Source of the DNA: Ignavibacteria bacterium
GTDB lineage: Bacteria; Elusimicrobiota; Endomicrobiia; PHAN01
Length of the DNA stretch: 42,629 nt
Reading direction: 5' to 3'
Assembly: GCA_041694835.1 (NCBI GenBank)
Contig: JBGFRZ010000016.1
Coordinates: 1 to 42,629, forward strand
Positions 24,729 through 41,018 of this stretch are shown here, one piece after another. The position numbers and the translations under genes are program-made. Below the pieces are notes generated by a model. The model was not told the origin of the DNA, ran no database searches, and saw nothing but the letters and a program-made list of their open reading frames with translations. Numbering within the stretch: the stretch's first letter is position 1; every line of letters begins with the position of its first letter.

Positions 24729-26111
24729 ATGGACATAAAACTCAATTACTCGAATGTTTTATCCGATGTCGTTGGTGAGCACGGCATATCCGAGCAGGAA
24801 TTAAAAGACGTCTCGGAGAAAATCGCAAAAGCTCACGGTGAAATTCTCAGGAAAAAATCCGCGGGGGAACTCGGATTCACAGAGCTTCCTCGCAAGACGA
24901 ATGATGTAAAAAAGCTCAAAACTTTCGCTAAAAAACTTGCAGGAAAATTCGAAAACTTTGTTGTCGTCGGCATCGGTGGCTCCGCTCTCGGGAACATAGC
25001 TCTTCAGACGGCACTGCGGCATCCTTACTGGAATCTGCTCAATAAAAATAAAAGAAAAGGATGGTGCAAACTTTTTGTTCCCGATAACGTGGATCCCGAA
25101 CTCATAAAAGGGCTATCCGAAGTCATAAATTTCAAAAACACAATTTTTAATGTAATATCAAAATCCGGAACTACCGCCGAAGGGCTTGCCAACTATTTTG
25201 TCTTGAGAAAGATTTTAATCCAGAAAGTCGGAAAGAACTACCGCAAAAATATAATCATAACAACGGACGCCGGCAAAGGGTTTCTAAGGGAACATGCTAC
25301 AAAAGAAAATATTATTAGTTTCGAAGTTCCGGGCAATGTCGGCGGAAGGTTTTCGGTTTTGTCGCCCGTGGGAGTTGTCTCTGCTGCATTTACGGGAATA
25401 AATGTTGAAAAACTTCTTTCGGGGGCGGACGTTATGGACAAAAAATGTTCCTCCGATAATCTCTTTGAAAACCCGGCGGCCATGTTTGCGGCCATTAACT
25501 ATCTCTTATATCAAAAAGGTAAAAAAATCTGTGTAATGTTTCCATACTCGAACGCATTATACGGAATATCCGACTGGTTCAGGCAACTCTGGGCCGAAAG
25601 CTTGGGCAAGAAAACAAATAACAGAGGAGAAACTGTAAACATAGGGCCCACGCCCGTAAAGGCTCTCGGCGCAACGGACCAGCATTCACAAATTCAATTA
25701 TATATCGAAGGCCCCTTTGACAAGATTATTACGTTTCTTTCGGTGAGTAGATATCGAACAAATGTTCGAATACCTAAAACAGGATACAAGCATTATCTTG
25801 AGGGCCATTCTCTCAATGAACTAATAAAATCCGAAGAGGATGCGACAAGGATAGCCCTCACAAAAGAAAAAAGGCCAAACCTTACGATTGAAATTCCGAA
25901 AATTGACGAGGAAAACATCGGCGGACTTATCTATCTTCTAGAGCTGGCGACAGCATATGCGGGGGAGTTATTTGAGATAAATACATTCGACCAGCCGGGC
26001 GTTGAGCTTGGCAAACATCTCACCTACGGCCTCATGGGGAGAAGCGGCTTTGAAGAAAGAAAAAAAGAAATCGAAGAGTTCAAAAGTAGACAAACGCAAA
26101 GGATAATTTAA
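24729..26111 (+). CDS. pgi: Glucose-6-phosphate isomerase
   Basis: Motifs GIGGSALG, SKSG.T.E, VGGRFSV, QLWAES.GK, DQHS and FDQPGVE.GK. Confidence 0.96.
   Translation: MDIKLNYSNVLSDVVGEHGISEQELKDVSEKIAKAHGEILRKKSAGELGFTELPRKTNDVKKLKTFAKKLAGKFENFVVVGIGGSALGNIALQTALRHPYWNLLNKNKRKGWCKLFVPDNVDPELIKGLSEVINFKNTIFNVISKSGTTAEGLANYFVLRKILIQKVGKNYRKNIIITTDAGKGFLREHATKENIISFEVPGNVGGRFSVLSPVGVVSAAFTGINVEKLLSGADVMDKKCSSDNLFENPAAMFAAINYLLYQKGKKICVMFPYSNALYGISDWFRQLWAESLGKKTNNRGETVNIGPTPVKALGATDQHSQIQLYIEGPFDKIITFLSVSRYRTNVRIPKTGYKHYLEGHSLNELIKSEEDATRIALTKEKRPNLTIEIPKIDEENIGGLIYLLELATAYAGELFEINTFDQPGVELGKHLTYGLMGRSGFEERKKEIEEFKSRQTQRII
25754..25769. other. Copy 1 of palindromic site TCGAACAAATGTTCGA (inside pgi)
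   Basis: Exact match to 30863 and 32911; core inverted at 40175. Confidence 0.85.
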
Positions 26112-26114
26112 TTG

Positions 26115-26701
26115 ACCCCCTTAGAGATAGTCCCGACCAGTCGGGACCACTGAAAAACCTCACCACAGAGGCACCAAGAACACAGAGAAAAAACTTTACC
26201 ACGAAAGCGCGAAAGTTGGAAATCACGAAAAAAATAATCCCTCTATTTCCCCCTTTATTAAAGGGGGATTTAAGTGGGATTGTTTCGTGTCTTCGTGGTT
26301 CAGAGTTTTAATAACACAGAACTGGAAAGCCTCACCACAGAGGCACCATGAACACAGAGAAAAAACTTTACCACGAAAGCACGAAAGTTAGAAATCACGG
26401 AAAATCCCCCTCTATCCCTCTTTTGTAAAGGGGGAAGCGAAGGAGGGGGATTTACAGTGACTTGTGCACTTGTGCTCTTATGCCTTGTGCACTTGTGCAG
26501 ACCAAGGTCTGCAACTACAAAACTTGTGCTTTGTTGCAAAAAATTTCTTACACATTTCTTTGTGTCTTGTGTGGTAGAAGAACTTTTTCAATAATCTCAC
26601 CAGTCGGGACGCATTATTTACAATTTTGCTCGATGAACTTTACGATGCTGATTTATCATAACTATCATTCGCAGGCGGTAAGAATGTATCTCTAACGGGG
26701 T
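26115..26701. repeat. Composite repeat pile bounded by family-D inverted ends
   Basis: ACCCCCTTAGAGATA / TATCTCTAACGGGGT (14 of 15 complementary). Inside: GTCCCGACCAGTCGGGAC, a 172-bp-period duplication (26158 and 26330), CCCC...AAAGGGGG hairpins and a CTTGTGCN array (26461-26499). Confidence 0.85.
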
Positions 26702-38916: not shown

Positions 38917-39375
38917 ATGAGTAAATTGAAGTCGCTCACCGCGTTAAAAAAAATCGTGGTTGAACTGAAAAAAAATGGCAAGAAAATCGTCTTTACAAAC
39001 GGATGCTTCGACTTAATCCATCCTGGTCACATCAAAACTTTTAGAAAAGCAAAAACATTGGGCGATATGCTTGTCGTCGGAATCAACTCTGACGCTTCGG
39101 TAAAAAAATTAAAGGGAAAATCCCGCCCGATATTAAACCAATCGAGTCGCGCTGATGTTTTGTCCGAGATGGAATCAGTCAATTACATTGTAATTTTCGG
39201 AGATGACACACCTTTGAAAGTCATAAAAACGATAAAGCCCGACGTTCTAGTAAAAGGCGGCGATTACAAAATAAGAGGCATAATCGGCCACGAAATCGCA
39301 AAAAAAGTCGTCAGGGTGCCTCTTATGAAGGGATTTTCCACGACGAACATCATAAAAAATGCCAAAACCCGATAA
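38917..39375 (+). CDS. rfaE2: D-glycero-beta-D-manno-heptose 1-phosphate adenylyltransferase
   Basis: Motifs FTNGCFDLIH.GH, NSD.SV..LKG..RP, LVKGGDY and STT.II. Confidence 0.93.
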   Translation: MSKLKSLTALKKIVVELKKNGKKIVFTNGCFDLIHPGHIKTFRKAKTLGDMLVVGINSDASVKKLKGKSRPILNQSSRADVLSEMESVNYIVIFGDDTPLKVIKTIKPDVLVKGGDYKIRGIIGHEIAKKVVRVPLMKGFSTTNIIKNAKTR

Positions 39376-39775
39376 GAAAGTTTTGAGGGTTATAGATGCG
39401 AATTTTAACCGTCTGAGAGACGCCCTTAGAGTAATCGAAGACACCCTCAGATTCGTATATGACTCCCCGTCGCACAGCAAAATCAGAAGCATAAGAACCG
39501 CTCTTTGCAAGTATATCTCCATGTCTTATCCTTCGCTTGTGACGGCGCGTTCCTCGGAAAGTGATCTCGGAAAAAACTCTCCGCAGAAAAAGCACAAAGA
39601 TGTCGAGGCGATACTCAGAGCTAATTTTTCAAGGTGTTCGGAGTCGCTTCGTGTTCTTGAAGAGTATCAGAGACTTATTTCTGCCCGGCGCTCGGCAGAG
39701 ATGAAGAAAATAAGATTTGCTCTTTATGGGGCGGAAAAAAAGATTGTTTCCGAATTATTCAAATATGAAAAATGA
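39359..39775 (+). CDS. Stand-alone ThiD2-domain protein
   Basis: Duplicated motif R.IDANFNR.R..LRV.ED and ANF.R..ESLRVLEE; adjacent to thiC. Confidence 0.8.
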   Translation: MPKPDKKVLRVIDANFNRLRDALRVIEDTLRFVYDSPSHSKIRSIRTALCKYISMSYPSLVTARSSESDLGKNSPQKKHKDVEAILRANFSRCSESLRVLEEYQRLISARRSAEMKKIRFALYGAEKKIVSELFKYEK

Positions 39776-41018
39776 ACTGATAAAAAAAACAGCGAGACTT
39801 GAAAATTTGCCCGAAGAATATATCAAGAAAGGATTGGATAGAGGGGATATCGCGATATTCTACAACAACGCCCGCGGATTTTCGATTCCAGTCGGATTCA
39901 GACCTCTTGCCGTGGGAAAAGGGCTAAGGGTGAAGGTAAATGCGAACATAGGGACGTCGCCAGATTTTGTTTCAATCGAAAAAGAAAGGGAGAAGCTATG
40001 CGTCGCTATAGAATCAGGAGCCGACGCCGTAATGGATCTTTCAACGGGCGGAGACATTGACAAAATAAGAAAAATGGTGCTTGAAGAATCCACGGTTTCT
40101 GTCGGAACTGTGCCAATATATCAAGCAATTTGCGAGACGACAAAAAGAAACAAAAGCCCCGAACAGATGGGGGGCGAACATTTGTTCGCGGTTATTGAAA
40201 AGCACGCCTCAGACGGCGTTGACTTTATGACTTTGCACTGCGGCGTGACAAGAAAAAATGTCGCTTTGACAAAAAAACGACTTACCGGAATAGTCAGTCG
40301 CGGCGGAGCGTTTCTTGCCAGATGGGTCATCGCAAACGCTCAAGAAAATCCACTTTATGAAGAATACGACCGTTTGCTTGAAACTCTAAAAAAATACAAT
40401 GTCACAATCAGTTTAGGCGACGGTTTACGACCGGGTTCTCTTAAAGACGCCAACGATAATGCCCAAAATGCCGAACTCAAGACACTCGGCGAACTTGTTG
40501 TTCGCGCGAGAAAAAAAGGTGTGAGTGTCATCGTTGAAGGTCCCGGACATATGCCTCTTAACGAAATAGCAGAACATGTGAGAGAGGCGAAAAAAATAAT
40601 AAAGGGTGCTCCTTACTATCTTTTGGGACCGCTTGTGACGGATATCGCGGCCGGCTACGACCACATAACCGGAGCGATCGGCGGGGCGATAGCGGCGTCC
40701 GCCGGGGCGGATTTTCTCTGTTATGTCACTCCGTCGGAACATCTTTCGCTTCCTGATATTGACGATGTAAAAAATGGCGTGATGGCTTCAAGAATAGCCG
40801 CTCATGCGGCGGACATCGCCAAAGGACTTAACGAAGCGCGAGTTCTTGACGACAAAATGTCGTATTACAGAAAAAAACTTAACTGGCAAGAGCAAAAAAA
40901 ATATGCTCTCGACCCGTCTAAGTTCGCTCAGATAAGAGAGAAGAAAATATCAAGAACAAGTCGCAGAGCGTCCGTCTGCAGCATGTGCGGAAGTTTCTGC
41001 GCAATGAAGCAGGGTTAA
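39765..41018 (+). CDS. thiC: Phosphomethylpyrimidine synthase
   Basis: Motifs [53 protein letters not shown] and CSMCG.FC. Start reassigned to 39765. Confidence 0.95.
40174..40189. other. Copy 4 of the palindromic site, inverted (GCGAACATTTGTTCGC, inside thiC)
   Basis: The 14-bp core is the exact reverse complement of the other three; the flanking G/C pair is also complementary. Confidence 0.8.

Follow-up and report, generated by a model that had tools for sequence, protein, structure and literature searches.

A LexA-type palindrome dispersed through an Elusimicrobiota genome, and a stand-alone LexA DNA-binding domain encoded between parA and parB as its candidate partner

Introduction

The site-specific nucleoid organisers Noc, SlmA and MatP belong to the ParB-like, TetR and ribbon-helix-helix families and have consensus sequences other than the one followed below; the noc gene of Bacillus adjoins soj-spo0J. 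The palindrome of archaeal SegB is 13 bp long and occurs at 46 sites, which cluster near segAB and are intragenic in 84% of cases. A 14-bp palindrome, CGAACAAATGTTCG, is given as the Staphylococcus aureus LexA consensus in a review (PMC11442139). We follow this same 14-mer in a stretch of 42,629 nucleotides from an Elusimicrobiota genome (GenBank assembly GCA_041694835.1, contig JBGFRZ010000016.1), hereafter the window, in the rest of that genome, and across the phylum. The reading that we tentatively favour is that the palindrome is the cognate site of a family of stand-alone LexA DNA-binding domains, here called mini-LexA, serving chromosome organisation or segregation in a way most like SegB or Noc. 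Neither a stand-alone LexA domain linked to parAB nor this motif outside SOS boxes is described in the full-text literature as we found it, subscription journals excepted.

Copies of the palindrome

The original prediction described four copies of the palindrome in the window, three of them inside genes and none in the first 25 kb, with an extra complementary flanking pair around each, and all of this is borne out. The exact 14-mer matches at 25755-25768, 30864-30877 and 32912-32925 on the plus strand and at 40175-40188 on the minus strand, the 16-mers beginning at 25754, 30863, 32911 and 40174, with the flanking pair being T...A at sites 1 to 3 and G...C at the site in thiC. The looser pattern CGAAC-N4-GTTCG is found at the same four places only, with 0.09 expected and nothing before 25755, and 100 dinucleotide-preserving shuffles of the window give 0 matches to CGAACAAATGTTCG. 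The three copies within genes are coding, and the sites and their hosts are as follows.

25754-25769, plus strand: site 1, 16-mer TCGAACAAATGTTCGA (14-mer 25755-25768), in pgi, coding Y-R-T-N-V-R-I in a variable loop
24729..26111, plus strand: pgi (phosphoglucose isomerase), host of site 1; PF00342, E = 7.5e-38
30864..30877, plus strand: site 2, in a KAS-like gene of the biotin cluster, coding F-E-H-L-F-E, residues 48-53
29923..31020, minus strand: beta-ketoacyl-synthase-like (KAS-like) gene, host of site 2; PF00109 and PF02801
32912..32925, plus strand: site 3, intergenic in a 37-nt gap, ending 1 base short of the ATG of bioB (32910, minus strand) and lying 23 nt past the stop of a 106-aa open reading frame (ORF)
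40175..40188, minus strand: site 4, GCGAACATTTGTTCGC, in thiC, coding (G)-E-H-L-F-A
39768..41018, plus strand: thiC, host of site 4; PF01964, E = 1e-173

Site 2 is taken as coding because the N-terminus of the KAS-like protein, VKTDIAVTSLGMFTPLG, reads as a genuine KAS start; the palindromic arm that follows this site, of the kind called class A below, codes F-S-D-D-K-S-F.

The source genome (G000, in which the window is contig C64) is a bin of 1.9 Mb in 89 contigs, 97% complete and 42.5% G+C. It has 56 CGAAC-N4-GTTCG sites, 49 of them with the AAAT/ATTT centre that makes the exact CGAACAAATGTTCG, and just 8 one-mismatch sites; together the sites group into 44 loci. Exact copies number 0 to 2 in each of 40 relatives from the same family or class. 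A codon-shuffle null had been proposed along with the original prediction, and when run on ORFs of at least 150 aa, it gives a mean of 0.54 copies (maximum 3) over 200 synonymous-codon shuffles, which the 21 actual copies far exceed. The intragenic character that had been stressed for the motif fits many sites, including at least 8 verified loci, and does not extend to the set as a whole, as about three-quarters of the loci are intergenic in a genome where intergenic DNA makes up about 9%.

The loci are moderately clumped, 2-7 kb apart. Among the 39 contigs of at least 20 kb, 24 are free of sites versus 17.5 expected (p = 0.004), with an overall chi-square p = 0.07. The genes near the sites are assorted housekeeping genes with no common function. 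The orientation of the asymmetric centre bears no relation to gene strand or to GC skew, so the skew check that had been suggested came out negative, and a polar, replication-oriented motif is rejected; this lack of relation is what is expected for a symmetric dimer site.

Scanning metagenomes with a 19-mer form of the site returned at least 118 contigs, and the 80 that were fetched are each single-copy. These mostly look like promoter boxes of unrelated organisms, and no close relative of the source genome is among the matches listed. A look for public sequencing runs that contain the window listed none. One unrelated metagenome contig of 47% G+C (L206) has 8 CGAAC-N4-GTTCG boxes in the 8 kb fetched, 3 of the 8 lying in a repeated module of a box followed by AGTGAGGGCGAAATTTTACCACA among short ORFs, a layout that looks as if a mobile element had reused one LexA-type operator repeatedly.

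The candidate partner protein

In the source genome, PF01726 (LexA_DNA_bind) has matches at two places only, and both are the N-terminal domain of LexA without the rest of the protein.

C54:38753-39019, minus strand: 88-aa mini-LexA gene between parA and parB; PF01726
C70: TyrA fusion, with the LexA-type domain as the last ~70 residues of the TyrA ORF; PF01726

Both genes abut copies of the palindrome. A class A site lies 19 nt past the stop of the 88-aa gene, and four loci fall within 10 kb of that gene versus 0.46 expected (P = 0.0013). The fusion has one site within tyrA, 135 nt ahead of the domain, and two more directly after the stop, before aroA. By sequence, the 88-aa protein matches the LexA chain 3k2z with E = 1e-7. 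Its model, with a pLDDT of 78, has LexA N-terminal domains for all nine of its best Foldseek matches, including the LexA-DNA complex 3jso, with rmsd values of 1.0-3.1 A, 8 of the 9 being within 1.0-1.5 A. Searching 1.84 billion representatives finds 615 relatives, many of them stand-alone at 63-115 aa; a word index gave no same-size homologue. Full-length LexA was not found in this 97%-complete genome by PF01726 and S24 searches, where the only S24 (PF00717) match is to an unrelated 114-aa protein beside a radical-SAM gene.

Divergent LexA homologues were among the things that the original prediction had proposed to look for, and these two genes are what was found. It had also noticed the fit to a LexA box and set that fit aside. 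The fit is real, since the motif equals the S. aureus consensus letter for letter and is thus a perfect LexA-type box, and setting it aside does not hold up, since the candidate partners are themselves LexA N-terminal domains. Taking together the identity of the operator, the LexA fold, the genes abutting sites and the co-occurrence described below, mini-LexA probably binds the boxes.

The domain is also seen in other arrangements. It occurs in tandem, up to the 11 copies of an 818-aa protein (P0001) of the representative library, and in another member of the phylum (L337, G018:C34) a LacI-family regulator of 441 aa carries it as a C-terminal fusion.

Distribution in the phylum

The mini-LexA alignment and the exact 14-mer were both searched against 401 genomes of the phylum. 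The alignment has 146 matches at E <= 1e-8, mostly to LexA-sized frames, and strong matches (E <= 1e-20) in 10 genomes: the source genome, seven members of a distant family (f19), G018 and G261. Five or more exact copies of the palindrome are found in six genomes only, namely the source genome (49), G048 (43), G061 (21), G059 (10), G063 (5) and G067 (5), and all six have a strong mini-LexA match; 391 other genomes have at most 2 copies. Four members of f19 lack a strong match, two having no match and two a weak one at E of 1e-10 to 1e-13, and all four have 0 copies. Fisher's test of the co-occurrence gives p = 4e-11, for genomes that are kin and represent about two lineages. Counting sites with any centre raises the totals to 53 in G048, 42 in G061, 22 in G059, 7 in G063 and 6 in G044, with a reversed control pattern at 0-2. 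In another class of the phylum this core underwent an expansion of its own, in every case in company with the protein.

Gene order is kept in both settings. The order parA, mini-LexA (82-83 aa), parB is found also in G063, G059 and G044, so two distant lineages have a mini-LexA gene co-oriented with parA and parB. In these three genomes the spacer ahead of parB holds a class-A-like element having the same arms and the variant cores GGAACAAATGTTCC or CTACAAATGTAT. G048 and G067 share with the source genome the order of DAHP synthase, TyrA fused to the winged helix-turn-helix domain, and aroA, and their sites occupy the same three positions, so the intragenic tyrA site is conserved across classes. 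Two genomes from the same family as the source genome (G001 and G002) have neither mini-LexA nor the motif; their tyrA stops before the domain, and other genes occupy their parA-parB spacer. The gap between parA and parB is variable in this group (L186, L188 and L189, from G001, G009 and G039). Depending on the genome, it is taken up by a membrane-like ORF of 78 aa, an ORF of 175 aa or a TPR protein of 346 aa.

Eleven single sites checked in G048 are mid-gene. Most are inside Pfam domains (CdhD, CoaB, LarA, aldehyde dehydrogenase, HhH-GPD, LpxD and ROK); of the remainder, one is between two LigA domains and one has a host ORF with no Pfam match. The arrays of G048 have periods of 17, 18, 26 and 28 bp.

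Anatomy and origin of the copies

Copies in the source genome are of two classes. Class A has 29 copies with T...A flanks, set in a palindrome of ~44-56 bp of the form ttTTCAGACGGAAAATT-core-AATTTTCCGTCTGAAaa, and mostly placed in short gaps between co-directional genes, ~19 nt past a stop and ~20 nt before a start. The 16-mer is invariant in all 29, the arms are conserved only in part, and high information content is confined to the 16-mer. Class B has 27 copies with C/G flanks, either arrayed in tandem (2-3 units, period 17 bp) or as ATAACCGAACA...TGTTCGGTTAT hairpins, and the 17-bp units at many loci have the same CCC spacer. A profile search with class A yields 94 matches, of which 19 are without the exact core, and a single one of these 19 is at E < 0.1, with a core one mismatch off. 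This search shows no decayed copies: the core is constant while its flanks drift. The arm 8-mers do not form a separate dispersed motif, being common elsewhere in the genome. We infer that selection holds the core wherever it lies, coding sequence included. An RNA hairpin function is set aside, since a coding copy may face either way relative to its gene and the strand of the gene does not predict the orientation of the site.

Five coding copies, in pgi, thiC, mnmA, tyrA and an aminotransferase of class IV, have no insertion or deletion (indel) relative to orthologues. The pgi site is indel-free against orthologues from 15 relatives at 54-70% identity, reading YRTNVRI where the closest orthologues have FRKTAPI. 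The mnmA copy has FEHLFESTVV in place of FEEIFKSEVA, the aminotransferase copy has PNKCSK in place of PYKCPK at an overall identity of 81%, and the motif codons of thiC have no indel in the 41 ThiC homologue rows listed. Making the indel-free copies took several substitutions, including non-synonymous ones. Two arrays have another origin. A three-unit array in an amidohydrolase gene is an in-frame insertion of +27 nt compared with orthologues of 84-85% identity, at a point already motif-like in those orthologues, and a thioredoxin-reductase-like (TrxR) gene has a two-unit in-frame array of +12 to 15 nt. Indel-free copies and inserted arrays together indicate that sites are made by point change, copying and slippage, and whatever drives their formation acts on the core sequence itself.

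Comparison with parS, SOS and REP sites

The original prediction held that the motif matches no parS, and it differs from the parS consensus, which is the 16-bp palindrome TGTTNCACGTGAAACA. Two parS-like sites, each with one mismatch, are found just upstream of parA, on a contig other than the window (C54:39848 and C54:40114). ParB therefore has sites of its own already, and the motif as a new parS is rejected.

The view that the sites are unlike an SOS regulon is likewise supported. The recA contig (C55) has no CGAAC-N4-GTTCG; uvrA and uvrB were not located. With no full-length LexA found in the 97%-complete genome and with housekeeping genes as neighbours of the sites, a classical SOS regulon is rejected.

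A link to REP-associated tyrosine transposases and their repetitive extragenic palindromic (REP) sequences is unsupported, as the contig of the single Y1-transposase gene (PF01797, contig C41) is free of the motif, inverted repeats are absent from the 1.5 kb around that gene, and several copies of the palindrome are intragenic. Membership among miniature inverted-repeat transposable elements (MITEs) or Rickettsia palindromic elements agrees in part, in that two arrays are insertions, and fails on the core-only conservation and the five indel-free copies.

Other features of the window and genome

The window has a biotin cluster on the minus strand at 26640-33268, comprising the 106-aa ORF, which is of no family, bioB, a FabG-like reductase, the short KAS-like gene, bioF, a 212-aa ORF assigned to bioD on its position only, and bioA. 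The pimelate moiety may come from the KAS and FabG pair. Directly after thiC, at 41026-41925, there is an N6/N4 DNA methyltransferase (PF01555).

Several other repeats are abundant. A second 14-bp palindrome, CCCGATAAATCGGG, has 45 copies in the genome, most of them being the core of a MITE-like element conserved over >100 bp; it is in the window at 3355-3368, 23882-23895 and 36382-36395, with a variant at 9089-9102 (3 or 4 copies). Conservation over >100 bp in that element, versus the core only in the CGAAC family, sets the latter apart from the MITE kind. Tandemly repeated heptamers (GCTATTT/GCTATTC and others) rank with the commonest 14-mers of the genome and flank several class A sites, on contigs C44, C47, C66 and C71. 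The sequence GGTCTGATTGAAACTTTTAACCG, of ~23 nt, has ~43 copies and may be a CRISPR repeat, and TTTTAGGACGCAGATTT has ~50-75 copies. DnaA-family matches are at C27:10785-11267 and C84:102482-102961, the C84 copy being 7 kb before gyrA.

Discussion

The favoured mechanism has the following outline. Mini-LexA, a winged helix-turn-helix protein of ~70-100 aa that lacks the self-cleaving S24 domain, would bind each palindrome, and the range from single 16-bp sites through ~44-bp composite palindromes to arrays of 17-bp period would give graded occupancy. Selection would keep the core letter-perfect, coding sequence included. The result would be a site-specific nucleoid protein acting beside ParA, and not a regulon induced by damage. 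A role in organising the genome as a whole, or as an accessory to segregation, is suggested by where the gene lies in the parAB operon, the four loci less than 10 kb away, the mid-gene sites, the arrays and the likeness to SegB, and we put it forward with more caution than the reading as a whole. The original prediction had spoken of an undescribed DNA-binding or segregation system. Its first half now has a candidate binding protein, encoded between parA and parB, while the segregation half is argued from gene order and analogy only.

In a more specific version, the chromosomal ParA would have in the 88-aa mini-LexA a second centromere-binding protein or an adaptor, and the two would form a type-Ib-like pair nested in a canonical parAB operon. 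The ~44 sites and arrays would then tether or distribute many chromosomal loci, and the pair would be a bacterial counterpart of SegAB, derived from a domesticated LexA DNA-binding domain, with selection rewriting coding sequence into sites. We consider this version rather unlikely.

Several observations weigh against reading the palindrome as an organising site of mini-LexA. Most loci are intergenic, many of them ~19 nt past a stop and ~20 nt ahead of a start, a placement that a regulatory or an insertional origin would explain no less well. LexA N-terminal domains dimerise via the C-terminal domain, which the 88-aa protein does not have. The source genome is a bin of 89 contigs, and at 97% completeness a full LexA could lie in the missing part; in G048 the product of a LexA-sized frame (210 aa) is another that could bind these boxes. 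The co-occurrence amounts to about two independent lineages. Within the sample, the protein is present with few exact copies in G044 (2) and G069 (1), and with 0 exact copies in G018 and G261 despite their strong matches, so it is necessary for the expansion in this sample and not sufficient. Finally, the parB-proximal elements of f19 have the variant cores GGAAC..GTTCC or CTAC..GTAT, and an exact site within 1.5 kb is found at 0 of 6 stand-alone f19 mini-LexA loci.

The main rival, which we regard as possible and as doubtful rather than improbable, is a global non-inducible repressor or roadblock, where mini-LexA tunes transcription through autoregulation of parB and of tyrA-aroA and through blocks in operons and genes, and has no organising role. 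Every solved LexA domain found is that of a repressor, and the same domain is joined to a LacI-family regulator in G018. The excess of intergenic loci, many directly before a start codon such as that of bioB, fits this, and the conserved sites between the tyrA fusion and aroA resemble a classical operator. On the other hand, the genes next to the sites share no function, perfect sites are mid-gene in at least 8 genes of the source genome and 11 genes of G048, arrays of three sites in coding sequence are unusual for operators, and the placement of the gene between parA and parB is kept in two distant families.

Less probable by some way is a selfish or neutral small repeat, like REP, MITE or Rickettsia palindromic elements, which would have spread by transposition, slippage or template switching, with only the copies beside mini-LexA genes being functional. 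Expansion is lineage-specific, the sites clump locally and leave more large contigs empty than expected, and other repeats abound in the genome, among them a true MITE and the heptamer arrays. The class A palindrome of ~44-56 bp resembles the f19 spacer before parB as if one operator had been copied, the 17-bp units have a common CCC spacer at many loci, and the amidohydrolase and TrxR arrays are in-frame insertions. Insertion cannot give rise to the indel-free coding copies, however, of which there are at least 5, and conservation is of the core only, unlike that of the >100-bp MITE of the same genome. The profile search found no decayed copies, the one Y1-transposase gene has neither motif nor inverted repeat nearby, and expansion occurred independently in another class, always with mini-LexA.

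An ordinary SOS regulon, in which a canonical cleavable LexA would use the boxes as its operators, is largely refuted and very improbable. The motif does equal the published LexA consensus, and a few neighbours act on DNA (a uracil-DNA glycosylase, rmuC, a xerC/D-like gene and gyrA), but most neighbours are unrelated housekeeping genes, the PF01726 and S24 searches and the boxless recA contig are as given above, and in relatives whose LexA frames are 200 aa long, lexA has no GAAC-N4-GTTC nearby and the motif itself is absent. Least credible of all is a DNA uptake sequence of the Neisseria or Pasteurellaceae type, spread by biased uptake and recombination, which would account for an exact, lineage-specific core in equal orientations with indel-free coding copies at poorly conserved positions, but known uptake sequences, which belong to naturally competent lineages, occur at ~1 per kb and this motif at ~1 per 40 kb (49 copies in 1.9 Mb), and tandem 17-bp arrays and a tight link to a DNA-binding protein are foreign to such sequences.

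If the favoured reading of mini-LexA as a nucleoid-organising protein is right, the DNA-binding domain of a LexA has left the SOS response and been put to genome-wide, site-specific use alongside ParA and ParB, a bacterial addition to the site-specific nucleoid organisers Noc, SlmA, MatP and SegB. Its sites would stay letter-perfect despite amino-acid changes in housekeeping enzymes, and would show how a site set can be constructed via point changes, operator copying and slippage. In Elusimicrobiota, a phylum nearly without genetics, the protein and its putative site make a directly testable pair.

Comparison with known systems

Rickettsia palindromic elements, REP sequences and MITEs are, like the copies here, small palindromic repeats found in frame within genes, and two arrays of the source genome are such insertions. 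The difference is that here only the 14-16-bp core is conserved and several coding copies are indel-free, with no transposase association found and with spread tied to a DNA-binding protein family.

The LexA box of Gram-positive SOS systems, or Cheo box, is closer in sequence. The motif is identical to the S. aureus consensus, and the partners share the winged-helix fold and the sequence family of the LexA N-terminus. Here, however, the partners have no S24 autocleavage and dimerisation domain, there is no recA box and no DNA-repair regulon, the perfect sites number in the dozens with many of them coding or arrayed, and the gene is between parA and parB or fused to TyrA.

With Noc and its NBS, SlmA and its SBS, and MatP and matS, the family has in common tens of palindromes, of 12-16 bp in those systems, spread over the chromosome in and between genes. 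The archaeal SegA/SegB pair of the Sulfolobales differs in that ours is in a bacterium, with a LexA-like protein, with canonical ParB and parS also present and with most sites of the source genome intergenic, so the likeness is functional only. What the two share is a ParA-type ATPase gene beside the gene of a small site-specific DNA-binding protein, here LexA-like and with its binding predicted, and tens of scattered palindromes enriched near that locus, here 49 exact copies and 44 loci, 4 of them within 10 kb.

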